This document shows positions 10,080 to 52,255 of a stretch of DNA of 64,000 nucleotides, piece by piece. The stretch lies in NCBI GenBank assembly GCA_043732185.1, contig JAYTHY010000006.1, positions 1 through 64,000 of the forward strand, in the 5' to 3' direction. The position numbers and the translations under genes are program-made. Source of the DNA: Fibrobacteria bacterium. GTDB lineage: Bacteria > Fibrobacterota > Fibrobacteria > UBA11236. The notes under the pieces are model-generated. The model saw only the letters and a program-made list of their open reading frames with translations, was not told the origin of the DNA and did no database searches. Every line of letters begins with the position of its first letter. The stretch's first letter is position 1.

Positions 10080-11324
10080 CTATGATCTATTTTTTCCGCT
10101 TTGGATTTTTACAATACGATTGACATTGAACATGAGAGCAATAGTTATGAGCATCGCCGTGGCAACTACGTAACCAAGTATGTTGTAGTTCCCTAAGGTT
10201 CCATCATCGTTTTGAATTACGATAAGCCCGGCAATGGAAGTGGCAATCCCACCGGAAATTTGTGCAGTTGAAGCGTTGATGGACATAAATGCCCCACGGT
10301 CTTGCGGTTTGGGTACGGCAGAGGCCAAAGCTTGCGAAGAAATCATCCTCGACATTATTGCGATAAATAGCACCACATTGATTACGATAACCCACCATAG
10401 CGGAGTAATACCCAATTGGCAATAATAAAGGACTATCGCTATGCCCAAAGTTGAACCGATCCAAAAGAGCTGAAACTTACCAATTCTGTCGCTAAATTTC
10501 CCAATCAATGGTCCCGCGATTATGGAGGAAAGGCCGGTAATTAAATATACGAGCGGCAAATTCTTCAAAGGAATACCCAAATTATGCACACTAAAGGCAC
10601 TACTGAATGGCATCAGCATAAACCCACCCGTGGCCAATAAAGTTGTGGCGGCAAATGCAGCCAGATAGTGCCCTTGGCTTACCGTTTTGAACAAGTGCTG
10701 CAAAGGGTTACGGTCCGATTTGATTTTAAGATGTTCGTTGATGGGCTGCAACTTAAATAGTATCAAGATTCCGACTAAAAAACTGACGCCGGTTATCATT
10801 AAAAAGGGTGCGTGCCAACCAAAATGATTCGATAGCAACAGACCCAGTGGAATGCCCAAAACCTGAGCAGCTGCGAAGGCAGTTTGGACAAAGCCCATGA
10901 CCCGGCCTCGGGTTTCAAAAACGAAGATGTCAGCAATGATGGCAAATATTATCGCCCCAATTACTCCGCCGAATATACCGGTTATTATTCTGGCGATTAA
11001 CAGCAAATGAAAAGTTGGTGCCAATCCACAAAAAAGGGTGCCCAACAAAAATCCGGCGTAAAAAAAGAGCAACAGTCTCTTGCGATCGAATTTATCAGCA
11101 AATCCCGCTGCTAAAATTCCTGAGGCTCCTGCGCTAAAGGCATAGGCGGAGACAACAAAACCAAATTGTTTGGTGGTAATACCCATGGATTGCATAAGAA
11201 TTGCGCCCAAGGGAGCTAGAATCATAAAATCGAGGATAATCGTAAACTGGAGAAAAGCCAAAATGGCTATGACTAAAATCTGGTAGGACGTAAAGGTAGG
11301 CTTTTCGCCTTTTTTGGATTGCAT
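10080..11324 (-). CDS. MFS transporter
   Basis: 12 TM pattern; ADKFDRKR motif A; GKFSDRIGK. Confidence 0.9.
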   Translation of the reverse strand: MQSKKGEKPTFTSYQILVIAILAFLQFTIILDFMILAPLGAILMQSMGITTKQFGFVVSAYAFSAGASGILAAGFADKFDRKRLLLFFYAGFLLGTLFCGLAPTFHLLLIARIITGIFGGVIGAIIFAIIADIFVFETRGRVMGFVQTAFAAAQVLGIPLGLLLSNHFGWHAPFLMITGVSFLVGILILFKLQPINEHLKIKSDRNPLQHLFKTVSQGHYLAAFAATTLLATGGFMLMPFSSAFSVHNLGIPLKNLPLVYLITGLSSIIAGPLIGKFSDRIGKFQLFWIGSTLGIAIVLYYCQLGITPLWWVIVINVVLFIAIMSRMISSQALASAVPKPQDRGAFMSINASTAQISGGIATSIAGLIVIQNDDGTLGNYNILGYVVATAMLITIALMFNVNRIVKIQSGKNRS

Positions 11325-11477
11325 TAAAAAATAATAGAAATAAGTAGGGTTCTTGATGGAATTAAACCTTCACACATTGCGCATAAAAAAGGCAGACCTT
11401 AGATGGCTTAGAACGTTGAAGCAATACTGAGTACATTTCTAAATTATTCCTCTTTGCCTTCAATATGGAAAACGAAA

Positions 11478-11894
11478 ATGAATATCCTGGATTCCAATTT
11501 GGATTTAAAGAAATGCTTTCCACTCATGAAGCAATTGCGACCTCATCTAACTTTGGAAAATTTTGAACAACAAGTTGAACGTCAGATTCATTCCTCTGGA
11601 TATACGCTCGCTGCCTTGGAAGTAAATAACGAATTAAAATCGTTAATTGGGTTTCGTGTAACAGAATATTTGGCGTGGGGGAAGATTTTATACATAGACG
11701 ATCTTGTGACAGATGAAGGCAATATGGGAAAAGGGTATGCTGGTACCCTATTGGATTGGGTGTTTAAAAAGGGAGCGGCATTAAATTGTCAGCAAATTCA
11801 CTTGGACTCTGGTTATCAAAGATATGATGCGCACCGCCTCTACCTAAATAAAAAAATGAAAATTGTCGGCCATCATTTCTGCAAAGAAGTTTGA
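11478..11894 (+). CDS. GNAT family acetyltransferase
   Basis: LYIDDLVTDE..GKGYA and HLDSGYQRYDAHRLY motifs. Start ATG 11478 (ORF track starts at 11454). Confidence 0.88.
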   Translation: MNILDSNLDLKKCFPLMKQLRPHLTLENFEQQVERQIHSSGYTLAALEVNNELKSLIGFRVTEYLAWGKILYIDDLVTDEGNMGKGYAGTLLDWVFKKGAALNCQQIHLDSGYQRYDAHRLYLNKKMKIVGHHFCKEV

Positions 11895-12703: not shown

Positions 12704-13378
12704 TCAGTGAATCTTTAGCACAATCCTACGATTCTTAGCCTGGTTGGCGGGAATGGAAATGCCCTCTGAATCTGTATTTGCAGACTTGGGCTTGGTGTCC
12801 GCATAACCTGCCGCTTTAAGCCGATCGGAAGTAATGCCTTTGCTAATCATGTACTTGACAATATTGGTGGCGCGTGAAACCGACAGTTCCCAATTTGATG
12901 GGAATTGAAGCGTCTTGATTGGGATATTGTCGGTATGCCCTTCAATATCCACTGCGAATTTGTAATACTCGATATTTTTGATGGCGTCCGTCACGATATC
13001 GATGTTTTCTCGTGCAGAAGGACCGATATCTGCTTTGCCGGGATCATAGATTGCTGAACTTGAGAATTCAAGTACGATACCTTCACGGGTCAAATCTATA
13101 CTGACTTCACCTCGCTTACGCTGTCCGGCAAGTAAAGAATCCAAATCGTGCTTGATTTCACCTAGAGGGGTTTTGACATCCTTATCCTTGCCAATATCGG
13201 TCCGCAAACCTTTTTTCATTTGTTCAAAGAGTACTGGGTCGACATGGGAGACGGATAACATCGTTAAAAAGAAGGCCATTAGCAGCGTCACGAGATCGGC
13301 ATAACTCATTAGCCAATCTTCTTCCGAGCCGTGCTGTTCGTTTACCCGATGGCGATTGGGATGTGCGTTGAGGGCCAT
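12704..13378 (-). CDS. motB: MotB-family stator B subunit with OmpA-like peptidoglycan-binding domain
   Basis: WLMSYADLVTLLMAFF (critical Asp kept), plug-like helix, IEGHTDNIPI, SNWELSVSRA, GYADTKP and NRRI motifs. Confidence 0.92.
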   Translation of the reverse strand: MALNAHPNRHRVNEQHGSEEDWLMSYADLVTLLMAFFLTMLSVSHVDPVLFEQMKKGLRTDIGKDKDVKTPLGEIKHDLDSLLAGQRKRGEVSIDLTREGIVLEFSSSAIYDPGKADIGPSARENIDIVTDAIKNIEYYKFAVDIEGHTDNIPIKTLQFPSNWELSVSRATNIVKYMISKGITSDRLKAAGYADTKPKSANTDSEGISIPANQAKNRRIVLKIH

Positions 13379-13393
13379 GGAACACTACCCTGA

Positions 13394-14209
13394 TTACTTT
13401 TTTGCCGCGTCCTTGGTGGACCCGGCCTTTTTTTCGAACATGGAATACTGTTCTTTACGATCAAGGTAGGAATTGAGTTTATCCTGTATGTACATGGCCT
13501 GTTTCTTATCCATGATCATGACTAAAGCCTCCAGTATCAGATAATGGCGAAATCGCTCGATGCTCAATGTCTGCCGTATTTTGGTAGATGCTGGCATAAA
13601 AACAAACCGAGCGAAAAGTAAGCCGTACAATGTGGCAGTCAATGCAAGCGAAAGCCCTGGACCCAATTTGGATGGGTCTTCCAATTTTCCGAGCATGACG
13701 ATAAGGCCCATCAATGTGCCGACCAATCCGAATGCGGGCGTCATCGAACCCATAGTGGTTAAAATGGTGCTTTCCTGCAGATGCCGGTAATAGTGTTCTT
13801 CGATGCTGGTGGTTCCCAATTCTCGGATTTCATCGGATTTATAACCGGTACTTGCCAAGTTGAAAATGTATTTGATGAACTCGTCCTTGCTCGACTTTGC
13901 AATAGTCTCATAGGTAGCCTGTCCATCCGACTGAAATTTTTTCTGCCAGTCGATTGCCGTTTTCACGTCTGCAATCAAGGTTTTTGAAGAAATGCTCTGT
14001 TTGAGGAATATCCTCAAGGTGGCAATAAAAGTGCTCCAGACGTACTTGAAACGGAATCCGATAAAGGTAACTGTAACGGTACCTCCGAAAACTATCGCCA
14101 AACTAGATGGACTTAGGAATACCTGCCAATCCTTGGTTTCATGCAAAATACCAGCAGCGATGATTATAAACCCAAATATGACTCCGAATACGGTGGAAAA
14201 AGAAATCAT
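13394..14209 (-). CDS. motA: MotA/PomA-family stator A subunit
   Basis: SLAIVFGGT, PAFGLVGTLMGLIVML and LGPGLSLALTATLYG motifs; full MotA length including the cytoplasmic loop. Confidence 0.9.
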   Translation of the reverse strand: MISFSTVFGVIFGFIIIAAGILHETKDWQVFLSPSSLAIVFGGTVTVTFIGFRFKYVWSTFIATLRIFLKQSISSKTLIADVKTAIDWQKKFQSDGQATYETIAKSSKDEFIKYIFNLASTGYKSDEIRELGTTSIEEHYYRHLQESTILTTMGSMTPAFGLVGTLMGLIVMLGKLEDPSKLGPGLSLALTATLYGLLFARFVFMPASTKIRQTLSIERFRHYLILEALVMIMDKKQAMYIQDKLNSYLDRKEQYSMFEKKAGSTKDAAKK

Positions 14210-14215
14210 AGCTGT

Positions 14216-15463
14216 CTATTTCCCCTTAGCCTTCTTGGTCGGAAAAACGGGCTTGCTCGGAGCATCTGCAGCGGCTGGTGGAACAGTAGGCACAGGTTTT
14301 TTTGCTTCAACCGATGCCTCAGGTTTCGTTTGTTCCTGAGGTTCGACTGACGCCTTTTCTGGAACAGGCGCAGCAGGTTTTTCAGCAGCGATATCGGGTG
14401 CAGGCTGCGGAGGAGGTGTAGGAGATGCAGATGGAGCTGGGGCTATGACTGGAGATGGAACCGCCATAGCTGGTTGTGCTATGGCAGGTGGACTAGAATT
14501 CTTTGGGGAACCGAGCCTACCCTCGCTATCGAATTTTTGAATTGACGTATTGTCGCCAGCGGCTTCTTCTGGAAAGGGTGCTCCATCTGCAACCTCAGGT
14601 CCGGCCGCTTCAATGACTGATGCGGGGGGTCGTGGAGCTGGGCGGGAAATTAGTGGTCTGGGAGCGGGTGAACCGCGTCCTCCTGGAGTGCGGGTGCGCT
14701 GCAGCATGTTTTCCACCGCTGGCATATCGGGATTTAGCCGCAGTGCGTCTTCCCAATGTCTTCGAGCCAAACCATTTTTTCCCATCATATAACTAATGCT
14801 TCCCGCCAAGGCATGACCTTCCGCCGTTGGCTGGGCGTCCAATGACTGCCGAACCATTGCCATGGCTTCCGGATATCGTTTTTGATAAAAAAGTTCCTGG
14901 GCTTTGCGGATCCCGGTTAAGACCTTGCTTGTAACATCCTCGTTACTGGACTGATCTTGATTGGCAGACTCCTCTTCAGAATCAGGCTTTGCTGCAGGCG
15001 GCTGGTGCTTTTCGGTTTTCGAAGACGTCTTCTCCGGTTTTTGTTCTTGTTTGGGTTCAGGCTTTTGTTCTTCCTGTTCTTGATCCTCCTGACCAGACTG
15101 GGCTGCTTGCTCCTGATTTCTATTTTTGGATGTAGGCTTACCGCGCTCCTTCTGAGGCGGAGGCTGCATAGCGGCCGCATCTTCAGCATTAGCCGGTCGT
15201 CCCGACATTTCCAGATAAACTTCCGTGGAACCAAGATCGATGCTCATGTGGGCGTCAGTGGTTTTATTTGCAAAGTGGAAATTGATTCCACCGGCCCCTT
15301 TTTCACCAGCTTGGTTTTGCGTTTCAACTTTCGTGGGTTCCCTTGTTTGCGCGCGCTCCGGAGGCGGAGCAGAGCCTCCACAACCCAGGAGAAGGGCGGC
15401 GGTCAGGCCAGCGACACCGGAGAACCGGGTACTAGAACGTATAGTGTAAGAAGGTAAGTTCAT
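14216..15463 (-). CDS. TPR-containing lipoprotein with Gln/Glu-rich and Pro/Ala-rich disordered regions
   Basis: Lipobox LLLGC; TPR-like helices KAQELFYQKRYPEA...ARRHWEDALRLNPD; low-complexity flanks. Confidence 0.75.
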   Translation of the reverse strand: MNLPSYTIRSSTRFSGVAGLTAALLLGCGGSAPPPERAQTREPTKVETQNQAGEKGAGGINFHFANKTTDAHMSIDLGSTEVYLEMSGRPANAEDAAAMQPPPQKERGKPTSKNRNQEQAAQSGQEDQEQEEQKPEPKQEQKPEKTSSKTEKHQPPAAKPDSEEESANQDQSSNEDVTSKVLTGIRKAQELFYQKRYPEAMAMVRQSLDAQPTAEGHALAGSISYMMGKNGLARRHWEDALRLNPDMPAVENMLQRTRTPGGRGSPAPRPLISRPAPRPPASVIEAAGPEVADGAPFPEEAAGDNTSIQKFDSEGRLGSPKNSSPPAIAQPAMAVPSPVIAPAPSASPTPPPQPAPDIAAEKPAAPVPEKASVEPQEQTKPEASVEAKKPVPTVPPAAADAPSKPVFPTKKAKGK

Positions 15464-16562
15464 AGGCAATAGGTTCCAGTGTCAAGAATCGTTCTGAATC
15501 TAGGCCCGTGCCTTGAATTTTTTTATTCAGCGGCAAAAACAAAATGCCCCCACCTAAAGTGAAATGTCGGCTGACACGGGATTTATATCCTACTGTGAGT
15601 GCGCTAATATGGCCGCGATTTAAAAAAGGAATGAACTCCTGCACGCCGATATAAGTCCCCAGCCAATAACCTAGATCGGGATTGGACTTCCGGAAAAATA
15701 TGCCCAGCATCTCAATGCCGAACTTTGCGGTTTGCATGTTGAAGTTGACGGCTAGACTATCCGGGCCACCAGAGCCATCCATGAATCCGTATCCCAAGGT
15801 CACTGAAAAAATCAGCCATTTGTCCGGGGTAACCGCTTCGCTAACCGTACCTTCAATGGCGTATTGGGTTAGGGACAAAGACTCAAGTGTGTCCAAAAGT
15901 GGTACACCATTGGTATCCGCTCGCGTGGTACTGGGTACGATTCCCCTGTGGATGGGAAACATTCGGACAGAAGAGGACGCGCTCCAATCCAGGTTCCAAA
16001 TATCCGGCTTTTTTTCATTTGGTCCCGCTACAAAACTCGCGGACCAAACCACTTCGCCCGTGCGATGCCGGAACACTTTGAGGTTTAAGATGACATCATT
16101 GTCTGCGCTCTTGGAACAAGATCCTTCGATGAATCCATCCACACGGAGTTTGTCCCCAAGTCTCCACAAGTCTTCCATGGAGGGAAGCGTATTGGAAAAT
16201 TTAAAAGAACTGTCGGTGGAAACCACCCGAAAAGTTCGGAGCTCCGGTGATGTCACAACGGTCTTACGGCCATCGCGCCGAAAGACCTCTTCCACCTGCG
16301 CCTGTATATAGCGCGATAGGCCGGGACTGAATTCAGCGGGATCAATTTTGATTTGGGATAGAGCAATGCGATCCATGCTGGGAGGAATATCCCCCATGGC
16401 CTTGGAAAGCCTCTGCATGATTTCAGCGATTTGTCGCAATCCTGTGGAACTGGGGGCGAAAGGATCAATGGCTGGAGCGGAGGCTGCTGAGACAGGTCCA
16501 GGATGGATACTGAGCAGCAGCGCCAGTATTACTCCGGCGCGTGCGGGGGTAATCCCCATCAT
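15432..16562 (-). CDS. Exported protein: CsgG/FlgO/LpoB-like alpha/beta domain plus putative outer-membrane beta-barrel
   Basis: Signal peptide (VSA-A); RLGDKLRVDGFIEGS...ILNLKVFRHRTGEVVWS pattern of the CsgG/TolB_N fold; alternating beta-strands ending YELTFLHYTF (terminal Phe). Confidence 0.6.
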   Translation of the reverse strand: MMGITPARAGVILALLLSIHPGPVSAASAPAIDPFAPSSTGLRQIAEIMQRLSKAMGDIPPSMDRIALSQIKIDPAEFSPGLSRYIQAQVEEVFRRDGRKTVVTSPELRTFRVVSTDSSFKFSNTLPSMEDLWRLGDKLRVDGFIEGSCSKSADNDVILNLKVFRHRTGEVVWSASFVAGPNEKKPDIWNLDWSASSSVRMFPIHRGIVPSTTRADTNGVPLLDTLESLSLTQYAIEGTVSEAVTPDKWLIFSVTLGYGFMDGSGGPDSLAVNFNMQTAKFGIEMLGIFFRKSNPDLGYWLGTYIGVQEFIPFLNRGHISALTVGYKSRVSRHFTLGGGILFLPLNKKIQGTGLDSERFLTLEPIAYELTFLHYTF

Positions 16563-18412
16563 GCCGGCCTCCCTGAATGTTTAATCTCATCGCGAATCCG
16601 ACTAAGCAGGCGACGCTGGGCAACTTCCGACTCCTTTGGTGTCACGTCCTTTGATCCTTCGATTCCTCCGGAGACCATCATCTGCATACGCTCCGGGAGC
16701 AAAGCCAAAATTTTAGTACGAATGGCTTCATCCACATGGATCAAGGCCAGGATCAGAGTTTCCTGGTCCAGGTTTTGGAGCACTCCGGACAGGAATTTAT
16801 CCGGCAATCCCGCAACTTCCGGCAGGGTAACGTACCGATTACGTATCTTTTCACCCAAACCCAAATCCATTTCGGAAATGGAATGGACGTAGTTGAATTG
16901 AAGATGAAGGGGAAGGCTGTCGATCAGTTCCAGAATGCTGTCTACGCCATCGGCGGCCACAAACCGCATATTTCCAACGTCCAATGCCTTAAGGGAAAGT
17001 CGATCGGCAATTTCTTTATACACATTGAGAGGGATATGGTCGATATTGCCCATTGCCAGCAGCAGTTTACCCCGGCTGTCCGGATCTACCTTTTGCAGAA
17101 TGCCACTGGCCATTTCTCCCTTAAGCTGCGCCATGACCAGTCCGGAAATGCCTTGGGATTCGTCGCGTAAAATATGCATGATCTGTTGCTCATTCAATTG
17201 ATGCAAGAATCCAAATAAATCCTTGTATTGATCCCCATTCGCAGATCCATTCGATAAATTCTGGAACTCGCGTTTGAATTCTTTGTATACGATGAGAAGT
17301 TCTTCCGGTGACGGAGCCTCGCCGGAATTCAAGTGGACTTCGAGCATCTGACTCAGTTCACGGCCAATCTCCGGAGTAAGCACACTCATGAGACGTGCAT
17401 CCAAACTCGCCACCATGGCGGCGGAATCACGTAGCCCTTTGTCCGGCTCGCGCTGGATCCAGCTTTTAATGATTTGACCACAGTGTTTTGGACTGCCCAC
17501 AAAACAGTTCAGTAAAAACGGACGGAAAGCTCCAAGTTCGGAGGGCTGGGCTTTGGCAGCTAGTCCTTTGCCAGTCTCAGCAGCAGGTTTTTGCGCCTCG
17601 GTGGGCAATGGCAGTATTGGTTGCGGCCCCTTGTCCTGTCTGTCCCGACCGCTCGCACCTACGATGGCGCGCGATACCATCCATACACAGGCTAGGATCA
17701 GCAAGCAGATTAGCAGAAGGGGAATCAAAGAAGGCAAGTGATCCATATAGGCGCTGAATGGGTTGGCAGCCGGTTTCTCTTTATCTCCGTATTTGTTCCT
17801 TCCGTCACGATCACTATTCGAATCGCTCTTGCTCTGTTGTGGCTGAGAGGCTAAAGGCGGAGGCGTTTCAGCAGGTTTGCGATAGGTGGACAAGGATCGG
17901 TTGTCCCGCGGAAATACGCCCTCATGCACCGCAACTCGGTCCCCGCGCAATTCATCTAAATGACAGGCCATACCAATTAGGTTGCGAATGAAATCCACAT
18001 CCTTATCGGAATAACCTGTATCCACCAATACGTCCAAGGTAACCGATTGGATGCCCCCGGATGTTTGCTGTTTGGTCTCTTTATCCGCAGCAGGTGGTTT
18101 CGGCTGCATCGTTTCTGGAAGAAAGGGAAGGCCCGGAAGTTGCGGTTGTGATTCCGTAGTTGCAGGCAATGCATCCTCATTGGACACATCAACTTCCGGC
18201 GAGGGCTCTGTTTCTACTTTTGCTTTGACAAGGAAGGTGGCTTCCTCGTAGTAACGCGATAAAGTCCGTGCAGCTAGGCTTTCATAATATTGTGCTAATT
18301 TTCCGGCTTGCTCTTCCTTACCAAAAACCTGCCGCGCGCCCTGTGCCATTGCGGATCCGGTAGCAAGACCCAACATCAACGTCATGGAAAATAATCTTAG
18401 AATTGTTAACAT
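16559..18412 (-). CDS. FliF C-terminal (RBM3-TM-C tail) / FliG fusion protein with signal peptide
   Basis: Signal peptide MLTILRLF...SAMA|Q; FliF-like GIQSVTLDVLVD...IRNLIGMACHLDELRGDRVAV, TM and PKHCGQIIKSWI; FliG-like AAMVASL, LFGFLHQL..ILRDE, DGVDSILELI, EKIRNRYVTL and TKILALLPER. Start ATG 18412 (ORF track starts at 18451). Confidence 0.8.
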   Translation of the reverse strand: MLTILRLFSMTLMLGLATGSAMAQGARQVFGKEEQAGKLAQYYESLAARTLSRYYEEATFLVKAKVETEPSPEVDVSNEDALPATTESQPQLPGLPFLPETMQPKPPAADKETKQQTSGGIQSVTLDVLVDTGYSDKDVDFIRNLIGMACHLDELRGDRVAVHEGVFPRDNRSLSTYRKPAETPPPLASQPQQSKSDSNSDRDGRNKYGDKEKPAANPFSAYMDHLPSLIPLLLICLLILACVWMVSRAIVGASGRDRQDKGPQPILPLPTEAQKPAAETGKGLAAKAQPSELGAFRPFLLNCFVGSPKHCGQIIKSWIQREPDKGLRDSAAMVASLDARLMSVLTPEIGRELSQMLEVHLNSGEAPSPEELLIVYKEFKREFQNLSNGSANGDQYKDLFGFLHQLNEQQIMHILRDESQGISGLVMAQLKGEMASGILQKVDPDSRGKLLLAMGNIDHIPLNVYKEIADRLSLKALDVGNMRFVAADGVDSILELIDSLPLHLQFNYVHSISEMDLGLGEKIRNRYVTLPEVAGLPDKFLSGVLQNLDQETLILALIHVDEAIRTKILALLPERMQMMVSGGIEGSKDVTPKESEVAQRRLLSRIRDEIKHSGRPA

Positions 18413-18576
18413 CGCACGGCAATTATACAACGAGGCATTTGTAGAGCGCATGTTTTTCTACGCAATTATTTTAAAATTATTTTGGCTAATCCTATTTGTT
18501 TCCTAAAGCTTCACGCCTTTCCTTCCGATAACTCTTTGTTGGACAGTAGAACCCAACTGATGCCTGGGAGAAGGAA

Positions 18577-20304
18577 TTGGACATGTCCTTGCGATTTTAT
18601 ATCGCGGTAATTTCGGTCCTCGGCTTATGGGCCTGTGATCCCGGGACAGTGCATGTGGTCCGGTCTTCAAACGGCAAAATTCGTCAGATGTGGACGGAAA
18701 AGGGGCCTCCCGGCCAACGCTCGGTACGCGAAGGGCTTTTTAAATCACTACTGCCAGATGGACGAATGGAAAGCACCATTGAATACCATGACGGAATGAA
18801 AAATGGGGATGCGAATTTCTGGTCCAAGGATGGGCATCTCAGTTTCCAAGGAAGATACCAAGAAGATTTTCTTGTCCATGAAAAACGTTTCAATCCACTA
18901 GGTGAGTTATTGCTAGATCGATCTTTTAAGGTCAAAAAAGCAGAAGTGAAGGCATTGGGACCGGAAGGCGATTCGATTTTGGCCGGCGAAACGTGTGCCT
19001 GGACAGATGAAAAAAACTCGCCGCCGTTGCGGCATGGGCTTTGCAAGTTAACCTATGCAAATGGAATGCAACTCGCGAATCGATATTACCAATTCGGTCA
19101 TTTACAAGGAGAGGTCACAGCCTGGTTTCCTAATGGAAAGGTTTGGATGGCAGGTGCGTACGAGCGTGACATTCCAACGGGTACGTGGAAAAACTGGACT
19201 CCCGGTGGCAAGCCACTCTGGTCATTTACTTATTCGCAAGGAGTGAAAAACGGACTTTCCGAGGAATGGTTTCCGGATGGCAAAGTCAAATCAAAAGGTT
19301 TCTTCAAGCAGGGTAAACAGGAGGGACCGTACCAGGAATGGTACCCTAATGGAAAAATTCGCGCCCAAACCGAATATCAATTGGGCAAACGCATTGGTCA
19401 GGAAGCGACCTGGTATCCGGATGGCACAAAGCTCTATACCGCTGCATATTGTAGCAGTAGCGGAAAGCTTGAAGGCGATTTTTATCAATGGTATCCCGGT
19501 GGTCGTATGCGACTGCATTGCCGCTTTCACGATGGAAAAAAGGAAGGGCTAAGCCGCGTTTGGTATCGGCAGGGCACGATTTTGGAACAGGCGAATTTTC
19601 ACCAGGGTCGCTTGAATGGACCTTATCGAACTTGGGGCCCAGAGGGAAATCCCCTGTCCTCGAAGGAATTTCGGGATGGCACGGTCGCCTTCGATTCCAA
19701 AGCCAAGGAATTGTTGGAACTGCTGGGAGCTGATCAAATTCGGGTACCTGTCGGTCTGCTAGGATTCTATTGGGGCATGTCATTAAAAGACTGTCGTTCC
19801 AACCTTTCCTTATTGCAGGCAACCAATATACACGCCGGTCAAGATGAAATAACCGCCCACTTAGTAGCCTTTGGTGATCGCCATCCTTCGGAAGCCAAGG
19901 TGCGGGTGCAGTTCAATGCCCAAGGAGAACTATGGGGAATCAAATTGGATGTGTTGCAAAAAAATTCCGCGGACTGTTTCACCATATGCGAGAATTTGGA
20001 AACTGAAATCGGCAGTGAACTTGGCACAGCGGGGCTACGCAAAGGTGAAGGCGCCGGCCAATACTATATGACGCGAAAAAAAGCATGGGGCAAATTTACC
20101 GTGACTACCGGGACAGGTGAAGATTCCTCTGCTGCCATTTCCGCTGTTCTTCCAGTGGTAAGCGCCGAGGCTTTCAGCCCAGGAGACAAAGGCTGGTTCC
20201 GATTTTCTTTAGCCAACCACTTGTATCGGGAATACGCCAATCCGGCGAATGCTGAAATAACTCCACCGAGCTGGCCGGAAGAAGCCTTCCTGGCCGGCCG
20301 GTAA
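18577..20304 (+). CDS. MORN-variant (YwqK-like) repeat lipoprotein
   Basis: Lipobox GLWAC; many G..xW(Y/F)P(N/D)GK repeats; unrecognised C-terminal domain. Confidence 0.8.
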   Translation: MDMSLRFYIAVISVLGLWACDPGTVHVVRSSNGKIRQMWTEKGPPGQRSVREGLFKSLLPDGRMESTIEYHDGMKNGDANFWSKDGHLSFQGRYQEDFLVHEKRFNPLGELLLDRSFKVKKAEVKALGPEGDSILAGETCAWTDEKNSPPLRHGLCKLTYANGMQLANRYYQFGHLQGEVTAWFPNGKVWMAGAYERDIPTGTWKNWTPGGKPLWSFTYSQGVKNGLSEEWFPDGKVKSKGFFKQGKQEGPYQEWYPNGKIRAQTEYQLGKRIGQEATWYPDGTKLYTAAYCSSSGKLEGDFYQWYPGGRMRLHCRFHDGKKEGLSRVWYRQGTILEQANFHQGRLNGPYRTWGPEGNPLSSKEFRDGTVAFDSKAKELLELLGADQIRVPVGLLGFYWGMSLKDCRSNLSLLQATNIHAGQDEITAHLVAFGDRHPSEAKVRVQFNAQGELWGIKLDVLQKNSADCFTICENLETEIGSELGTAGLRKGEGAGQYYMTRKKAWGKFTVTTGTGEDSSAAISAVLPVVSAEAFSPGDKGWFRFSLANHLYREYANPANAEITPPSWPEEAFLAGR

Positions 20305-20313
20305 AGGCTTTTA

Positions 20314-20652
20314 TTACATCAATTTCTTCAATGTTTTTTGCACCGCACCCAATTGTTTTTTAAGGGCTTTTAGCGCCGACATCGCTGCATGAACGCTTTT
20401 AAGTTTACGACCGTCCAAACTCTTGACCTTTGCAGGTCGACCCAATTTTTTTTCTTCGCCATTGGAATTCATCCAACGTTTAAGGGCAACGTACGATACA
20501 CCGAATTTCTTACATGCCGCGGAAATTCCACCACGGCCACGGCTTTTCACAAAGCTGAGAATGATTTTCTTTTGCGATTTGGAATACCTTTTTCCAGTAT
20601 TCCCTTTTTTTTTGCTTTTTTTTCTGCTTTTTTTCGCTACTACAGTCGCCAT
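20314..20652 (-). CDS. Small Lys-rich HTH DNA-binding protein
   Basis: KRYSKSQKKIIL...GISAACKKFGVSYVALKRW HTH, very basic N-tail and C-terminal coiled coil. Start ATG 20652. Confidence 0.7.
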   Translation of the reverse strand: MATVVAKKSRKKSKKKGNTGKRYSKSQKKIILSFVKSRGRGGISAACKKFGVSYVALKRWMNSNGEEKKLGRPAKVKSLDGRKLKSVHAAMSALKALKKQLGAVQKTLKKLM

Positions 20653-20759
20653 GCTATTTCCCTTTTTAATAAACATTTATTTCTATAAAAATACTAATAC
20701 TAATAATAAAATATATTTCTGTTCTATTCGGAACAGCTATCTATTTAAAGGAGAATTCC

Positions 20760-21500
20760 ATGCTTTGCAAAGAAGATTTCGTTGATGTCAAGACAGAAAG
20801 CGGCCTGATGCGCATCCACAGGTTCTTCCCATCAGGCAATGGACTCTATCCAGGTCTGGTACTTTTTTCCGAAATCTTTCAGGTAACCGGCCCCATACGG
20901 CGCACGGCGCGCTTTTTGGCATCTCATGGGTATATCGTGGCTGCACCGGAAATTTATCATGAGTTCGAACCGGCTGGTTGCGCACTGGCATATGATCAAG
21001 CAGGTACGGACAAAGGTAATCGCTATAAAATCGAAAAAGATCTCGCTGCTTTTGATGCGGACGCCCGCGCTGTCATCGCGCACTTACAAGGCTTACCTAC
21101 GTGTACGGGTCGACTTGGTTCCATCGGGATCTGTCTTGGTGGCCACCTTAGCTTTCGATGCGCGATGAATCCGGAGATTCTTGCCGGAGCCTGTTTTTAC
21201 GCCACGGACATTCACAAGCGCAGTCTGGGGAAGGGGCTAAAAGACGACTCGCTCGATCGCATACCGGAGCTAAAGGGAGAGATGCTGATGATCTGGGGCA
21301 AACAGGATCCACACATTCCCCAAGCAGACCGCGAACTTATTTACGGAGCCATGACCAACGCGAATGTGAATTTTACCTGGCATGAATTCAATGCCCAGCA
21401 CGCTTTTATCCGTGACGAAGGCCCCAGGTACGATGCCGCCCTGGCGCAGATTTGCTTTTCAATGGTGTTGGAGATGTTCAGCCGTCGGCTTTTAGCCTAA
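20760..21500 (+). CDS. Dienelactone hydrolase family protein
   Basis: SEIFQV, GICLGG nucleophile elbow, QDPH and HAF motifs; GGAG RBS. Confidence 0.92.
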   Translation: MLCKEDFVDVKTESGLMRIHRFFPSGNGLYPGLVLFSEIFQVTGPIRRTARFLASHGYIVAAPEIYHEFEPAGCALAYDQAGTDKGNRYKIEKDLAAFDADARAVIAHLQGLPTCTGRLGSIGICLGGHLSFRCAMNPEILAGACFYATDIHKRSLGKGLKDDSLDRIPELKGEMLMIWGKQDPHIPQADRELIYGAMTNANVNFTWHEFNAQHAFIRDEGPRYDAALAQICFSMVLEMFSRRLLA

Positions 21501-21517
21501 TCTGGACCGGATACCAC

Positions 21518-22621
21518 TCAAAGATTTATAGCCTTTGCTAAATCCTTATAGACGCGACCCACGCGTTCTACTTGGCCCTTGGCTGGAAATCTTTCAAAAA
21601 AGCCTTCGCAGCGGAAGGACTTCTTGAGTTCCGTCCAAGGCTGCAAGAGTTCTATCCAGCGTTTGACGCGGCCTGTAGATACCGAATCTTTGTCGGAAAG
21701 ATCGGCGCAGATACGCACCAATGCTTTTAGGGTAACCGGTTTGGTGACCATATAATTTCCATTGCCCCAGGCATCCCCCCAAACATTGGCACAGGCCTTG
21801 AGAAAATCCCGAAGAATTTCGTAATAAAATTCTGCTTGGTGCATGGGAGAAAGATCTTCCTTGAAGTCCCATTCCGATTTGACCCAACGGTTCACTTCAT
21901 TGAAAAGTTCAGCCTGGAGAATCCATTTTTCGGCCTTGCTTTTTCCACCGAGCCGGTTGATGCGATATTGAAGCGGGCTGTCGTCATTGCCATAAAGGCA
22001 TTCCACCACGCGCGCGCAACAGCGCTTATCCGGTGAGGCAAAAGAGACTTTTTCGTAAAGGTCGACCAGATGGCTTTTGTTGATACGGGTCGGCGTGGAG
22101 TTGATGATGACGAACATCTCCGTGGCAAAATCCTCACTTCGACCATCGAATATAATGCAGGGGACGTTGATGGTCGCGGCTTCAGCGGGGCGTTCCCGGA
22201 AGTAGAAATGCAAGGCAGCCAAGCGGTGCTGGCCGTCGATGATCAGATATTTATCGTCGGGTTCTTGTAAATTGCCAACGCTGTCCTGTTCCGGAAGGGC
22301 TCGAAAACGGAGTTTTTCCGGTGTAAAAAGCAAAATTGTACCTGGAATAGGGGGCTGGGTACTGGCGGTTTCGTAAAAATTGCGAATGGCCCTGATCTTC
22401 TCCCGCGCCATAGTGCGCTGAAAAGCTTTATCAGAATGTTCGATTTTTGAGATGAAACGGGCGATATCGTCTTCGGCCTTGGGTGCCTCTGCCGCGATTG
22501 GAGTGCCTTCATCATAGAAACGCGTGCTGAATCGCACCTTTTCTAGAAGTGCTTTCGCCGGATACGCGGCGAAAAAGAAAAGTGCGTCTTTTTGGCGGAC
22601 CTGGGTAGCAAGCATAGTCAT
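21518..22621 (-). CDS. DGQHR domain protein (DndB/ParB-like)
   Basis: FQR, IIDGQHRLAAL and FVIINSTP motifs. Confidence 0.88.
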   Translation of the reverse strand: MTMLATQVRQKDALFFFAAYPAKALLEKVRFSTRFYDEGTPIAAEAPKAEDDIARFISKIEHSDKAFQRTMAREKIRAIRNFYETASTQPPIPGTILLFTPEKLRFRALPEQDSVGNLQEPDDKYLIIDGQHRLAALHFYFRERPAEAATINVPCIIFDGRSEDFATEMFVIINSTPTRINKSHLVDLYEKVSFASPDKRCCARVVECLYGNDDSPLQYRINRLGGKSKAEKWILQAELFNEVNRWVKSEWDFKEDLSPMHQAEFYYEILRDFLKACANVWGDAWGNGNYMVTKPVTLKALVRICADLSDKDSVSTGRVKRWIELLQPWTELKKSFRCEGFFERFPAKGQVERVGRVYKDLAKAINL

Positions 22622-24016: not shown

Positions 24017-24819
24017 ACCGCATTGACAAGGCCTTCACCAACCTGAGGACCCAAAAGAAAAAAGCCTTTATACCTTACGTGGTTGCGGGCGTACCAGGCA
24101 TCGAAGAAACAGTGGAACTGGCCCTTGCATTGGAAAAACTCGGGGCCGATATCATCGAATTGGGCTATCCTTTTTCGGATCCCATGGCTGACGGGGTAGT
24201 CAATCAGGCAGCCGCCAATCGAGCATTGGAATTGGGTGTGGATGCGGACATTTATTTTTCCATCGTGGAAAAAATCCGGCAACGCTCCCAGGTTCCCTTA
24301 ATCGCCTTTTCTTATTTAAACCCCTTGTTCAAGCTGGGCTTTGAAGTCTTTGTGAAGCGAGCCAAAAATGCAGGCATGGATGGGATTCTAATCGTCGACA
24401 TGCCTGTAGAGGAAGCGGAAGAAATGCAAGCACTCTGCCGCCGCGAGGACTTGTCCTTAATTTTCCTAGTGGCCCCGACTACTACTCCGGACAGACTCGC
24501 CTTGGTTCTAAAAGCTGCGAGTGGTTTTCTCTATTATATCTCTCGAACCGGTATTACCGGCGAACGCGACAGCTTTCAAACCGGTTTCGAAAGCAAAGTT
24601 TCCACACTTAAAGCGGCTTCAAAATTGCCCGTGGTCGTAGGCTTCGGAATTTCCAAACCGGATCAAGTTCGTACGGTTTGCCAACTCACGGATGGCGTAG
24701 TCGTCGGCAGTGCATTAGTGCGCCGTACCCTGGAAAGCCAGCCTTTTACTACCATGCTAAAGGAAATCAGCGACTTCGCCGCACCACTTATCGCTCCCAC
24801 CAAGGAAACATGGACCTAG
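24013..24819 (+). CDS. trpA: Tryptophan synthase alpha chain
   Basis: [22 protein letters not shown] and DGVVVGSA motifs. Confidence 0.97.
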
Positions 24820-25073
24820 ACGATTGGCGTCGGAGCATCGATGCTCTTAATCTCCAATTGGTGGAGATCCTCAATGTTCGCGCAGGTTGCGCACTCGCTA
24901 TCGCAGAACTCAAGCAGAAGAAAAATCTCCCCGTGTACGATCCCGTTCGTGAGAAACAGGTCTTGGATGCCGTCTTGGCTGGAAACAAAGGTCCACTTTC
25001 CAACGATGCCGTCCTACGAATATTCGCCTGCATTATCGCGGAACATCGTCTATTAGAGGAATCGGCAGGATGA
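24810..25073 (+). CDS. Chorismate mutase (AroQ type)
   Basis: [14 protein letters not shown]...LNVRA...K...YDPVREKQV motif; ATG 24810 overlaps the trpA end. Confidence 0.88.
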   Translation: MDLDDWRRSIDALNLQLVEILNVRAGCALAIAELKQKKNLPVYDPVREKQVLDAVLAGNKGPLSNDAVLRIFACIIAEHRLLEESAG

Positions 25074-26224
25074 ATGGGAATGCCGGTCGCATCCATTGGC
25101 ACTCTTCACATATAGCCGTAGTCGGCCTGGGACTGCTGGGAGCCTCCTTATTGGAAGCGGCACGCAAGCGGTGGCCGGGTATCAAGGTGACGGGTGTTTC
25201 TTCCGCTGCAACTTTAGAGAAGGCCAAACTAGAGGGACTTTTGGATAAGGCCTATGGCTATTCCGATATCGATGTAGCCTGCGCGGATGTCGATCTGATT
25301 CTGCTCTGTACTCCCATCGATGCCATTTTAAATCAGCTTAAAGCCTGGGCCAAATCTCCCCTGCCTTGCAAACCAGGATGCGTGGTCACGGATGTGGGCA
25401 GCACCAAGGTTGAAATCTGCGCTGAAGGACTGAAGGCTTTTCCGGCTTCGCAAAGCGGAGCGATTTTTATCGGATCGCATCCGATGGCCGGCAGTGAAAA
25501 GACGGGCTGGGAAGCACGTGATGCGTGGCTTTTTCAAAATGCTTCGTGGGTGATCTGTCCCACAGATGCGACAGAGGCCTCAAACGCCAACAACGCTTTG
25601 GCAAGAATCGAAAGCTTTGCGCAAGGGGTGGGTGCCCGTACCACGCATATGTCGGCGGAGCTACACGACGAGGTGGCAGCACATGTTTCCCACCTGCCCC
25701 AAATGCTTTCCACCGCTTTAGCCAGTTATATTGGCGGCCGCAGCAGCGTAGTGGAAAATTGTCTGCAAATAGCGGGCGGTGGCTTCCGGGATATGACCCG
25801 GCTGGCAGCCTCCTCTTTCAAGGTATGGGAACCAATTCTGCGCACCAACCGCGCCACCATTAAAAGTGTTGTATCCGGATTTCGTGCCCATTTGAAAGTT
25901 CTCGAAGCAGCCATGGACACGGATTTGGGTGCAAACCAGTTTAACAGTGGCAACCGATTGCGTAATCAGGTAGCCGTTGCGAAGAAAGGCTTCGCGTCCC
26001 CTTTGGCGGAAGTGCTTGTCGATTTGGAGGACAAGCCCGGTGTCCTTTTGCGTGTATTCCAGCCATTGGCCGAAAAGGGTATCAATGTATTGGATGTGGA
26101 AATATTAAAAGTCAGAGAAGGCGAAGACGGCACCTTGATGATAGGCTTTCATGGAAACAATGAGGCAGATATGGCATTAGACTGTTTGACCAAGGCGGGG
26201 TTTCGTGCCCGACTTCGACATTAG
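25070..26224 (+). CDS. tyrA: Prephenate/arogenate dehydrogenase with C-terminal ACT domain
   Basis: GLGLLGAS, DVGSTK, HPMAGSE, SHLP, GFRDMTRLA motifs; ACT DKPGVL. Confidence 0.93.
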   Translation: MNGNAGRIHWHSSHIAVVGLGLLGASLLEAARKRWPGIKVTGVSSAATLEKAKLEGLLDKAYGYSDIDVACADVDLILLCTPIDAILNQLKAWAKSPLPCKPGCVVTDVGSTKVEICAEGLKAFPASQSGAIFIGSHPMAGSEKTGWEARDAWLFQNASWVICPTDATEASNANNALARIESFAQGVGARTTHMSAELHDEVAAHVSHLPQMLSTALASYIGGRSSVVENCLQIAGGGFRDMTRLAASSFKVWEPILRTNRATIKSVVSGFRAHLKVLEAAMDTDLGANQFNSGNRLRNQVAVAKKGFASPLAEVLVDLEDKPGVLLRVFQPLAEKGINVLDVEILKVREGEDGTLMIGFHGNNEADMALDCLTKAGFRARLRH

Positions 26225-30452: not shown

Positions 30453-31190
30453 TCACTCCGATTTCATTTTCAAGATCCGGAACATGGGCAACAAGTGCTT
30501 GCGCAACTCTGCAACCACCGCTGGCAAATCACCCATGGGTACGGTCAGCCGGCTTTTTTTGACGAAAGCGTTCCACTGATTTTGTTTGAGTGGATCTGCG
30601 GAAAAATCCTTCATCCTGGAATTGGCCATATCGAGCACGACCATGGCTTGAAATTTTTCGGCGATGGCGGTATACGGCGGATAAGCCAATAGCACCGGTG
30701 CCGGGCCATCCAACAAGGTTGGAAAGGTGATTCGCTCAGGCTCCGGTGTAATCGCATCCCCGAATCCTACATCCACTTGCAAATCAATCCGAGATTTGCC
30801 CAGCAAGGCCCGAAGTAAAATACGCACCCCTTGGTAATCCTGATCTTCCTTGATGCGATTGACGCGCACCGTCTCCGCTTGGAAAACCAGCCCATCCACA
30901 GCCAAGGTATCGGGTATGCAGAGTTCACGAAAAAGTTGGGCGATGGCTTCCAAATCCGAAGAACCTACGCCCAGCAAATCCACATCTCGGGTCGTACGAA
31001 AAGCATGCCCGAACCAAACGAGGAAAAGGCTGGCCCCTTTAAGGACAAAGCGGCTGCCAAGTTCGGACTGGGAGAGACGGTACAGCAGGCGCTCAACGCC
31101 ATAACGAGCGAGAACGAAATTGTATTCTTCTTGATGGGTTTTGCTGAAATTTAGGAGACGCTGGGCCACGGAATGGGAAATATCGGTCAT
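30453..31190 (-). CDS. abiEii: AbiEii-family nucleotidyltransferase toxin with an apparent in-frame internal deletion
   Basis: ERLLYRL, FVLKGA, RTTRDVD, QVDVGFGD, AEK and NSRMKD motifs. ATG 31190 overlaps the antitoxin stop. Confidence 0.85.
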   Translation of the reverse strand: MTDISHSVAQRLLNFSKTHQEEYNFVLARYGVERLLYRLSQSELGSRFVLKGASLFLVWFGHAFRTTRDVDLLGVGSSDLEAIAQLFRELCIPDTLAVDGLVFQAETVRVNRIKEDQDYQGVRILLRALLGKSRIDLQVDVGFGDAITPEPERITFPTLLDGPAPVLLAYPPYTAIAEKFQAMVVLDMANSRMKDFSADPLKQNQWNAFVKKSRLTVPMGDLPAVVAELRKHLLPMFRILKMKSE

Positions 31191-31789
31191 GACGCCGCTT
31201 CCATTTCCAAATACGGGCGCATGATTTTTTCCATGCGACAAACCTTGGCCATTTTCACTATTTCGGCCCGACTGGCTTTCTTGGATTTTAGTGCTTCCAA
31301 CAGGGCTTCCATCGCCACATCGAGTCCCACCTTGTTCCTCATTTTGAACAGGTCCGCTACGGTCTTGGCCACGCTGTATACTCGCAAGGTGACGCCGTCG
31401 ACTTTATATTTTTCAATACCCTGCGTAAAAGCAGCTCCAGAAAAACGAGCGACCTTCAAGGATGGATACGCTAGTTTGGGTGCTCGGGCAAGGCCCTCAA
31501 CTGCGATCCAAACCTGATGGGGAAGTTGGGATGTCAACCCATGGTAATTCAAAGCCGAGAGCAGACAAAGCACCACCCTAGGTGCACGCAGAAATACCTC
31601 GGTATAACTGGGATGGGTTAGTATCGGAGCCTTCGCAACCTGATACACTCCTCGCGTGAGGCGTTCGACACTTCCCGTTTTGATCAGGTACTGCAAGTCC
31701 TGCCTACGGAACCCTGCTGTCTCCAGTTCACGCACTCGGCAGGGTCCGTGTTTTTTCAAAAAGGAAACGGTATCTTTAAGCTGGCTCAT
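31187..31789 (-). CDS. abiEi: AbiEi-family antitoxin / transcriptional regulator (type IV TA)
   Basis: wHTH with RLTRGVY, CLLSALNYHGLT and YSVAKTVADLFKMRNKVG motifs. Confidence 0.9.
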   Translation of the reverse strand: MSQLKDTVSFLKKHGPCRVRELETAGFRRQDLQYLIKTGSVERLTRGVYQVAKAPILTHPSYTEVFLRAPRVVLCLLSALNYHGLTSQLPHQVWIAVEGLARAPKLAYPSLKVARFSGAAFTQGIEKYKVDGVTLRVYSVAKTVADLFKMRNKVGLDVAMEALLEALKSKKASRAEIVKMAKVCRMEKIMRPYLEMEAAS

Positions 31790-37300: not shown

Positions 37301-37689
37301 GATTCACTCGCTGCTGCAGGATTCCCCCAGAACATTTTGATGCCTTGGCGTGCATTGCCGGTAATAGTCGGGATGCGAACCCAGATGGCGGCTTTGCCGT
37401 TGAAAACGTCCCACTCTTCCAATTGGTATGGTAGAGTAGCGCCCGCCATAGTGGAAAAACGGATGTCCTCACCATTGGTTTTCGCCTGGCTGAAGGTGAA
37501 GAAGTCCTTGTCCAACCGTACGAGAACGGGGAAACCGGTTTCGGTAACCCCAGCCGGTAGGTTTGCACCATCCGGAGTGGTGAGGATGAACAAGGAATCG
37601 GAATTGGACCAACCGGGATATTGGGCAAAGCCGTTTCCGCACAGAAATGCAGCGGCAAAAAGCATCATAAAACAGGCATTGTGCTTCAT
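34393..37689 (-). CDS. Secreted DUF2341 + LamG + SASA (SGNH acetylesterase) protein with T9SS-type C-terminal domain
   Basis: Signal peptide; GEDIRFS..LPYQLEEW (DUF2341); FNGSIDE (LamG); GQSNA and WHQGEAD (SASA); LINLRGQAV...GVYVVKI CTD. Confidence 0.82.
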   Translation of the reverse strand: MKHNACFMMLFAAAFLCGNGFAQYPGWSNSDSLFILTTPDGANLPAGVTETGFPVLVRLDKDFFTFSQAKTNGEDIRFSTMAGATLPYQLEEWDVFNGKAAIWVRIPTITGNARQGIKMFWGNPAAASESNGAAVFDTANGFEGVWHLNEAGSTTAGAYKDATANANNGTGASMTGASNITGMVGRAQAFNGTSSFIDCGDKTSQRISGNVSVSAWVNILGGEGQVLGSGGGWSDPGYSLFLLKNGTAYKTRIHTQRSGELVYSDNAFPSIGQWHLVGFTWSASDKTIRTYINGAQVSQTATFNGPLGMPLENTNIGRNQSHGFYFNGSIDEAVISSKTRSAAWMKLAYENQKPMQTLAGPLVPTGTTFSASQTQITVLEGKNATLTATAGGAQKIYWILKDTGAGVILAVDQLNYTYSAGRVTGDKNIVIQLKAVYPTEVKTQDITITVKEDQADPIFSLTAPATWNGRDPINVVAQVANQAALDAKGVGALSYAWNVANIAAGKQITPGKLTLTRSQGTGKMTVTLSINNGGMTVTHSADIVVTEPNVDSWVYRTPGAIEKPENNQFYARDDKNVCTVYYKGALTSTPDSVYLNVYAGATLFKRVAQKMSSGAYDFSPNIDPGLVEYKFEFGSKTSGTETVLSTVTNVLCGDAYIIEGQSNAVGTTFGTDLNPTTSEWVRTFGNSGDGNPGSGWANAVHAAGGGAATIGYWGLELGRQLAATYKIPICFFNGAVGGTRIDLHQRSLTNPTDSNTIYGRLLTRLQRAKMTHSIRGVLWHQGEADQNSDGPSGLWGWQTYLQYFVDMSSAWKEDYPNIKHYYIFQIWPNGCAQGGIGGQDNILREVQRTLPNLYSNMGIMSTIGVRPGVGCHTSADGYMQFVRLMSPLVERDNYGKVFTTSITPPNIKRAYYTSTGKTAITLEFDQAVKWTTSLISQFYLDGVSGKVASGAISGNTLTLALNAASTATKITYLDSRSWSEDNILYGANDIAALTFYDVPIYADATTETNPHISLHKEYGGISAKLINGGINLTFGRLEGQVLVVELINLRGQAVVRKVIAGAASDVGQLTLPGLDRGVYVVKIKRLGRTAFLKRVTVF

Positions 37690-47268: not shown

Positions 47269-47282
47269 AGGATTTTCCTCGG

Positions 47283-48920: not shown

Positions 48921-48928
48921 TCAAATTC

Positions 48929-52236: not shown

Positions 52237-52255
52237 AAATCCCTGAGCCGTAGCA

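Follow-up and report, generated by a model that had tools for sequence, protein, structure and literature searches.

To our knowledge, neither FliG nor the MS-ring has been described outside the flagellum, and the question raised by the DNA analysed here, a 64-kb stretch from a freshwater Fibrobacteria bacterium (positions 1 to 64,000 of contig JAYTHY010000006.1, hereafter the window), is what a rotor protein of that kind is doing in an operon with its own stator and two outer-membrane partners. The operon is a cassette of five tightly packed open reading frames (ORFs) spanning 12704-18451, all on the minus strand, as are the domain coordinates given below. FG (16559-18451), a predicted 630-residue fusion of the third ring-building motif (RBM3) of FliF to FliG, was identified from its ORF, Pfam matches, an AlphaFold2 model and orthologues. 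It is followed by B (15432-16562; ORF, model and fold matches), 376 residues with a predicted periplasmic domain and outer-membrane barrel, and by T (14216-15469; lipobox in the sequence, weak repeat matches), a putative tetratricopeptide repeat (TPR) lipoprotein of 417 residues read from a TTG start. The last two genes encode a MotA-like stator A subunit of 271 residues (13394-14209) and a MotB-like stator B subunit of 224 residues (12704-13378). FG and B overlap by 4 nt and B and T by 38 nt, while gaps of 6 and 15 nt separate T from MotA and MotA from MotB. All five of the co-oriented, close-packed genes reported in a preliminary description of this DNA were thus recovered in place; the end of FG given there, 18412, is the second in-frame ATG, an alternative start that opens a typical signal peptide, and the full ORF reaches 18451. 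A scan of the locus for promoters and terminators returned fewer sites than in shuffled sequence. Full-text literature searches returned no description of such an operon, and the cassette is not described in passages of papers on MotAB evolution (PMC12505986) and motility loss (PMC12199754) or of a preprint on the LBCA flagellum (PMC13277936). It looks like an apparently undescribed motor built from flagellar parts.

The central component is FG, in which Pfam recognized FliG_M (42 bits) and FliG_C (56 bits), both over cut-off, and YscJ_FliF_C (PF08345) at 21.9 bits, slightly under the cut-off of 23.8. An AlphaFold2 model was built from an alignment of 86 diverse homologues, with a mean predicted local distance difference test (pLDDT) of 80.9. 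Residues 1-37 (18341-18451) contain a hydrophobic helix (9-35) ending in ...GSAMAQ and form a signal peptide or anchor, which is probably cleaved. Residues 40-181 (17909-18334) aligned with residues 228-438 of Salmonella FliF (6scn_K) with Z 13.5, a root-mean-square deviation (rmsd) of 1.6 Å over 95 residues and 17% identity (VIA-align), and with Vibrio FliF at Z 12.1, while the best unrelated fold reached only Z 9.5; the Foldseek E-values of this domain were 5e-3 to 2e-2. This is the RBM3-like, ring-building part of FliF, modelled as alpha-beta-beta-alpha-beta (44-178) and split by a poorly ordered insertion of 52 residues (82-133) that occupies the site of the FliF beta-collar. The insertion carries an invariant LPGxPxxP, the most conserved motif of the family, with L105, P106, G107, P109 and P112 unchanged in 10 FG sequences; over the 86 diverse family members, P106 and D171 are invariant. 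A linker modelled as disordered leads to a single transmembrane (TM) helix at residues 239-266 (17654-17737; pLDDT ~94, hydrophobic sequence).

Beyond the membrane, residues 303-626 are all-helical in the model, and helices 303-334 may occupy the place of the C-terminal FliG-binding helices of FliF. Residues 337-630 (16562-17443) matched Salmonella FliG 4-327 (8umx_B) with Z 15.7 and the full three-domain FliG_N/M/C fold, and the FliG_C domain superposed with an rmsd of 1.6 Å over 88-89 residues both on 1qc7_B and on FliG bound to MotAB (8ucs_H). Sequence similarity is far lower, as FG scored 69 bits against the FliG equivalog TIGR00207 (cut-off 226.7) and its FliG part is 19% identical to the genome's own FliG. 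RBM1 and RBM2 (PF01514) had no match in FG, and the canonical FliF is the sole PF01514 match in the genome. These two domains of FliF house the export gate. The layout of FliF with two TM helices was likewise not found, as the model has a signal-peptide helix in place of the first TM helix, one RBM and one TM helix. On this model, nature has fused a complete FliG to a much shortened FliF, of which only RBM3 and one TM helix remain behind a signal peptide; the resulting FG is predicted to be held in the inner membrane by one helix, with the RBM3-like domain in the periplasm and the FliG domains N, M and C in the cytoplasm. The structure matches bear out the FliF/FliG fusion proposed earlier, and they correct the routine annotation of FG, which appears in public records as "flagellar motor switch protein FliG", "FliG-like protein" or "hypothetical protein".

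Joining FliF head-to-tail to FliG has a precedent in the laboratory. A Salmonella FliF-FliG deletion-fusion has reportedly been engineered. A 945-residue Vibrio FliF-FliG fusion has been solved as an S-ring (PDB 8z4d/8z4g), and a Vibrio fusion forms a ring in the membrane according to the title of PMC10941966. Those proteins are constructs of full-length FliF within a flagellum, whereas FG is natural, about 300 residues shorter and encoded in a non-flagellar operon. Compared with the flagellar motor core, FG combines in one polypeptide what are there two proteins, lacks RBM1, RBM2 and the first TM helix, and has a beta-collar reduced to the 52-residue insertion. In the operon around it, genes for FliM/N, the export gate, the rod, the hook and the filament are all missing, and their place is taken by a barrel protein and a TPR lipoprotein.

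The stator half of the cassette is closer to its flagellar counterparts. MotA matched MotA_ExbB (81 bits) and MotB matched MotB_plug (58.5 bits) and OmpA (57 bits). The best NCBIfam models for the cassette MotA were MotA, MotP and PomA at 128-135 bits, compared with 24 bits or less for TolQ/ExbB, although its best score of 135.3 is below the equivalog cut-off of 340; against MotA in the PDB the E-value was 8e-28. For MotB the best model was MotD (171.7 bits, under the cut-off of 283), and the channel aspartate, D28 (13295-13297), lies within ...SYADLVTLLMAFF; the protein also has the plug and an OmpA-like peptidoglycan-binding domain. In a quick FastTree of 29 proteins, drawn from the sample's own sequences with no outside references and after five long or duplicate paralogues had been dropped, all 21 cassette MotAs (11 from Fibrobacterota and 10 metagenomic) formed one clade (support 99) beside four canonical MotAs, and cassette and canonical MotAs together were set apart from four Tol/Exb-like paralogues (support 98). 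Judged by sequence, the cassette MotA and MotB are flagellar-type stator proteins with channel aspartate, plug and peptidoglycan anchor, in agreement with the intact MotAB first claimed for the locus.

These features bear on the other machines in which a MotAB-family unit of the inner membrane works with periplasmic or outer-membrane partners, namely TolQRA-TolB-Pal-CpoB, ExbBD-TonB, GldLM of the type IX secretion system (T9SS), AglRQS-Glt and ZorAB. We know of no Tol, Ton, Gld, Agl or Zor 5:2 motor that uses FliG or an RBM ring, and their partners are quite different; the cassette stator, moreover, has a plug and an OmpA domain and groups with the flagellar stators. Another reading is a Zorya-like anti-phage system, with the MotAB-type unit sensing envelope damage, and weak ZorB matches of MotB in PADLOC (64 bits or less) point that way. 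We consider this scarcely credible, since none of the five proteins matched ZorA, ZorC or ZorD in PADLOC, the flagellar MotB/MotD models give MotB much higher scores, and MotA, at 271 residues, has no long ZorA-type cytoplasmic tail. The cassette is also conserved vertically and family-wide, not in a patchy, island-like manner. A defence-system reading in general was rejected, as PADLOC gave no match for FG, B, T or MotA and only the weak ZorB match for MotB.

The two genes between rotor and stator would link the cassette to the outer membrane. B was modelled with a pLDDT of 78.7 as a signal peptide, a periplasmic domain and a barrel. The periplasmic domain (residues 43-181; 16020-16436), of LpoB-C/TolB-N/PelC/FlgT-like fold, matched LpoB-C at Z 12.2 and FlgT at Z 7.7, the latter within the range of common arrangements. 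The eight-stranded outer-membrane barrel (residues 188-376; 15435-16001) matched NspA (Z 14.2) and the N-terminal domain of OprF (Z 14.0), and the protein ends in ...LHYTF, a beta-signal, so that model, fold matches and C-terminus all back the outer-membrane barrel assigned to B at first reading. Pfam returned no match to this B even at E<=10; of the five B-family sequences scanned, the distant orthologue P0282 alone matched FlgO (PF17680), at 26.3 bits, and the public annotation of B is "hypothetical protein". B is thus predicted to be an outer-membrane barrel whose periplasmic domain has the fold with which PelC and FlgT form rings beneath the outer membrane. In T, the lipobox LLLGC can be read directly, as expected of the proposed TPR lipoprotein, although the TPR matches are weak, with TPR_2 at 25.6 bits (cut-off 27) over a region of about residues 185-260 (14690-14917). 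The window's T has long low-complexity stretches rich in Pro, Glu and Gln; in its orthologues, which are about 200-230 residues long, the TPR and a short N-terminal block are conserved, as is the lipobox.

Given these parts, we lean slightly towards an autonomous rotor-stator envelope machine of flagellar type, in which the cassette's own stator turns the ring and the output goes to the B/T complex. FG would oligomerise through RBM3 into a ring bearing a FliG ring, and MotA5B2-type units fixed to the peptidoglycan would turn it by ion flow, acting through the torque helix of FliG_C. Switching would be absent, because the FliM-binding motif is gone and the operon has no FliM or FliN. The periplasmic face of the ring, with the short insertion at the collar site and its LPGxPxxP, may pass movement or force to the B/T complex in the outer membrane; a complex prediction that paired FG 40-236 with residues 36-376 of B, the mature protein, scored 0.00 (mark 0.32) and speaks neither for nor against a contact. 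Such a machine would have no switch, export gate, axle or filament, and would spend inner-membrane ion energy on an outer-membrane task, as in Tol, Ton and GldLM, with a flagellar rotor as its engine. The outputs proposed in the preliminary description, surface motility, secretion or outer-membrane transport, would be candidates for that task.

The same parts might also work without rotation. FG could then be a force transducer like TolA or TonB, pulled or remodelled by the MotAB-type unit, with the FliG part as a docking site only and B and T as Tol-Pal-like partners in envelope maintenance or division. The top Foldseek matches of B, TolB (E 7.5e-6) and LpoB, fit such a role, and T is a TPR protein, presumably like CpoB or PorE. 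A related metagenomic locus, L062, the one scanned with Pfam among 12 complete loci of a marine subclade, encodes a MotB-like protein of 501 residues (10205-11710(+)) in which OmpA is followed by a SPOR domain (72.4 bits), a septal-peptidoglycan domain that hints at recruitment to the septum. Set against this, no other fold comes near the ring-forming FliF RBM3 as a match for the periplasmic domain of FG (Z 13.5 vs 9.5), and the stator is of the flagellar type and not of the Tol/Exb type. The genome has separate TolQ/TolR-like genes elsewhere, with a weak TolB_N match beside one TolQ-like gene, and because of these a replacement for Tol-Pal was rejected; the cassette MotA scores a mere 24 bits with the TolQ model, and B has a barrel where TolB has a beta-propeller. 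We regard a non-rotary transducer as quite improbable.

If the cassette is a motor, is it simply the motor of the cell's flagellum? The window belongs to contig C6; the whole assembly comprises 4.46 Mb and has a completeness rating of 100%. In it, a canonical FliG (352 residues, FliG_C 157.7 bits) adjoins a canonical FliF (560 residues) on contig C56, and a canonical MotA/MotB pair on contig C50 scores above the NCBIfam cut-off (289.3 vs 237 bits). FlhA is present outside the window, as are three flagellin-type genes; one of these, of flagellin-N type, lies at C6:93653-94051, about 75 kb from the cassette (398-aa frame, 73.6 bits). The genome has 11 MotA_ExbB matches in all. Because canonical fliF-fliG, motAB, flhA and flagellins are all encoded separately, the cassette is neither a displaced flagellar motor nor a substitute for a missing flagellum; the flagellar set has its own fliF, fliG, motA and motB, and the first of these possibilities, raised in the preliminary description as one that would undo the stand-alone reading, does not apply. 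Within the window itself, a scan of 51 of the 53 non-overlapping ORFs of at least 100 residues turned up no further family of flagellar or chemotaxis proteins, which sustains the earlier statement to that extent, the two ORFs outside the scan being 20423-20785(+) and 24788-25102(-).

The cassette is conserved within the class. Full-length FG orthologues were present in 13 of 14 genomes of the genus and in two further families, and the order FG-B-T-MotA-MotB was kept in 10 of 11 fetched loci from three families of Fibrobacteria, the eleventh ending after B at a contig end; the cluster is therefore no peculiarity of a single genome, which had been the other objection foreseen. All five ORFs were intact in every locus with enough DNA, and no other gene of the window, and no flagellar gene, was a common neighbour across families. 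Measured against two close relatives at dS 0.45-0.86, the ratio of nonsynonymous to synonymous substitution rates (dN/dS) was 0.057 and 0.086 for FG, 0.053 and 0.068 for B, 0.158 and 0.177 for T, 0.015 in both comparisons for MotA, and 0.015 and 0.020 for MotB. The five genes are co-inherited and under strong purifying selection. A profile from 10 FG orthologues gathered 190 clusters at 50% identity (E<=1e-30) from 1.84 billion representatives, mostly of about 600 residues and matched end to end.

These results weigh on the idea that a flagellar motor was once duplicated and that the cassette is its decaying, now functionless remainder. All NCBIfam equivalog scores of the cassette are under cut-off, and flagellar remnants are reported from non-motile species in passages of PMC12199754. 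Intact ORFs in all loci with enough DNA, dN/dS values of 0.015-0.18, a gene order conserved down to 28% identity and the 190 diverse full-length clusters all run counter to decay, and we hold this explanation to be very unlikely.

A motor that runs beside a canonical one might show it at the contact between rotor and stator, and the interface motifs were read from an alignment of the genome's own FliG with seven C-terminal halves of FG. The EHPQ(R) motif of FliG_M, which we take to be the FliM-binding motif, is lost: the canonical KEHPQT reads (R/K)(D/E/G/R)E(S/A/D)xG in the FG family (ESQG or similar in place of EHPQ), and the Glu alone is kept, in all seven. The canonical MFVF (MFXF) became YVTL or similar. 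In the torque helix, the Arg is invariant in 10 of 10 FG sequences (R588), the positions of the Asp-Asp pair read SG, GG, SS, SA or ES, and E598, two positions past the lost pair, is nearly invariant. On the stator side, all 11 cassette MotAs have E or D at the acidic position of the canonical ...ALE, the canonical Arg three residues before a conserved Gly is replaced by Q, S, T or similar, and a dibasic pair lies three residues upstream. Passages of PMC12505986 give the known pairs as MotA R90 with FliG D288/D289 and MotA E98 with FliG R281. With columns equated to E. coli residue numbers by motif reading, without alignment to the E. coli proteins, these substitutions hint that one charged FliG-MotA pair was kept and the other lost on both partners. 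A shift of the charged pairs by one helical turn was considered and dropped, as it depends on where a 3-residue indel is placed and the marine subclade lacks the pattern.

Relatives of the cassette were also sought in metagenomes, where a scan using a narrower alignment, that of a distant FG subclade, recovered 23 loci, among them several near-duplicates. Sixteen belong to the queried marine subclade, and 12 of these are complete, encoding FG, a small TPR protein, MotA and a long MotB; two are cut within MotA and two after FG. In 14 of the 16, an upstream ORF of about 1000 residues at full length matches the T profile, and in L062 this large protein has Ig-like domains. In a protein atlas, the FG proteins of the window and of L062 were nearest to clusters of FliG_M/FliG_C proteins of 500-840 residues whose labelled members are mostly from Balneolota, Pseudomonadota, Elusimicrobiota, Bdellovibrionota or Bacteroidota, and these taxa, resting on cluster labels, are leads and not alignments; a profile search with the diverse FG alignment returned only proteins named as Fibrobacterota, and the cluster entries of 10 distant family members carried no organism names. 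It is confirmed that related cassettes exist outside the Fibrobacterota genome sample, with their taxonomy given by cluster labels only. Whether the cassette is an autonomous rotary engine, derived from the flagellum or a sister line of its motor core, that powers an outer-membrane task in several phyla seems to us evenly balanced.

The distribution within Fibrobacterota bears on independence from flagella. FG was found in 36 of 296 genomes (E<=1e-20; one, G151, a partial and doubtful match) and FlhA in 133; 32 genomes have both, 159 neither, four have FG without FlhA, and 101 of the 133 FlhA-positive genomes have no FG. Related genomes among these are non-independent samples, and the counts include one unpublished genome (G011, FG-negative and FlhA-positive) on which no claim rests. 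Three of the four FG carriers without FlhA, namely G002 (78% complete), G038 (66%) and G047 (92%), retain rod genes, and G038 and G047 also have a canonical FliG. The fourth, G032, is a single contig of 1.6 Mb, 98% complete, in which the cassette is intact and tightly packed (621, 383, 203, 252 and 233 residues) and in which FlhA, FliP, Flg_bb_rod and canonical FliG were not found, nor any MotA beyond that of the cassette; every other carrier checked has a separate canonical MotA. The synteny in a non-flagellated genome suggested at the outset as support was thus seen, once in the phylum. Because of the 101 flagellated genomes without FG, together with G032, the cassette is dispensable for flagella and can outlive them. 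Two side observations on FlhA arose from the same survey. Full-length FHIPEP/FlhA matches number two in G013 and three in G014, both of the same genus as the source genome (~890 and ~700 bits), so that some relatives may have another export system, flagellar or type III; and in G039, G041, G043 and G053 of family f4, the FlhA match lies in frames of 915-1629 residues compared with the usual ~700, which could be fusions or read-through frames.

Several results weigh against an autonomous machine. Flagellar genes are present in 35 of the 36 FG carriers, 32 with FlhA and three of the other four with rod genes, and for this reason a link to flagellar motility has to be reckoned with; the 159 genomes that have neither FlhA nor FG give no support for independence. 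G032 is a single case with the most diverged cassette, its FG being 28% identical. The periplasmic fold of B and its TPR partner recall flagellar accessory rings (FlgT/FlgO, MotX, PflB). Among the metagenomic loci, the seven outside the marine subclade (L078-L084, several near-duplicates) have FG-B-T with no MotAB in flanks of up to 7 kb, and in L080 (7010-10799) a MarR regulator and a SusC-like TonB-dependent receptor come next instead. The MotA charge pattern is not kept in the marine subclade, which weakens the idea of a private interface. The "stand-alone, non-flagellar" label of the preliminary description accordingly holds in part, in view of G032 and of the canonical motor encoded elsewhere in the genome, and is tempered by the 35 carriers with flagellar genes.

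The explanation that these points would favour is a flagellum-linked accessory, that is, an auxiliary or alternative rotor-stator, a ring serving as scaffold, or a device that stores or brakes stator units, with no job of its own. B shares the FlgT/PelC/LpoB fold of accessory rings (Z 7.7-12.2), with FlgT being a component of the Vibrio H-ring, the distant B orthologue matches FlgO, and the rod genes of G047 lie about 15 kb from its cassette. TPR proteins scaffold stators in the Vibrio and Campylobacter motors, and T beside MotAB, we presume, recalls the TPR/Sel1 scaffolds MotX and PflB. In contrast to the periplasmic rings of high-torque motors (the H-ring and basal disk of FlgT/FlgO/FlgP, the T-ring of MotX/MotY, and PflA/PflB), however, B is fused to an OmpA-like barrel of eight strands, no P/L-ring or rod genes stand alongside, and the cassette persists intact in G032, where no flagellar gene was found. 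Also against an accessory are the 101 flagellated genomes that lack the cassette, the lack in FG of the FliM-binding motif and of the RBM1/2 in which an export gate would be held, the absence of any flagellar gene as a conserved neighbour, and a cassette MotA clade distinct from canonical MotA. We consider an accessory role unlikely, and prefer the autonomous envelope machine at the strength stated above.

Other genes of the window also deserve mention. Divergent from FG lies a gene for a MORN-repeat protein of 575 residues (18577-20304(+); MORN_2 63 bits), with a weak match to the Leptospira LIC20035 adhesin family; it was rejected as a member of the module, as it adjoins FG within the genus only. 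In G034, a weak MORN relative occurs 3 kb past MotB. An operon-like run at 45625-53659(-) encodes a 547-residue protein with a small-GTPase domain (Arf/Gtr1 matches), two Roadblock/LC7-type proteins (113 and 142 residues), an unknown protein of 292 residues, a DUF4388 protein of 363 residues, an unknown protein of 739 residues and a sigma-54 response regulator; it presumably resembles the MglA/MglB-type polarity modules of gliding bacteria. An AbiEii toxin/AbiEi antitoxin pair and a DndB-like protein are encoded at 30453-31789(-) and 21518-22621(-). A protein of 1098 residues (34393-37689(-)) has DUF2341, a laminin-G-like domain and a SASA esterase domain; DUF2341 is named in passages of PMC12505986 as an extra domain on MotA-family A subunits.

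If the autonomous machine is real, it would be the first non-flagellar use of a FliG rotor, a living "half a motor" with a function. A conserved operon under selection that keeps just ring, rotor and stator together with outer-membrane proteins would show that the torque core works, or once worked, without a secretion apparatus or a filament. In the genome studied here, the same cell encodes both the module and a full canonical motor, which implies that the two rotor-stator pairs are kept apart and would make such a cell a natural test bed for the specificity between stator and rotor.

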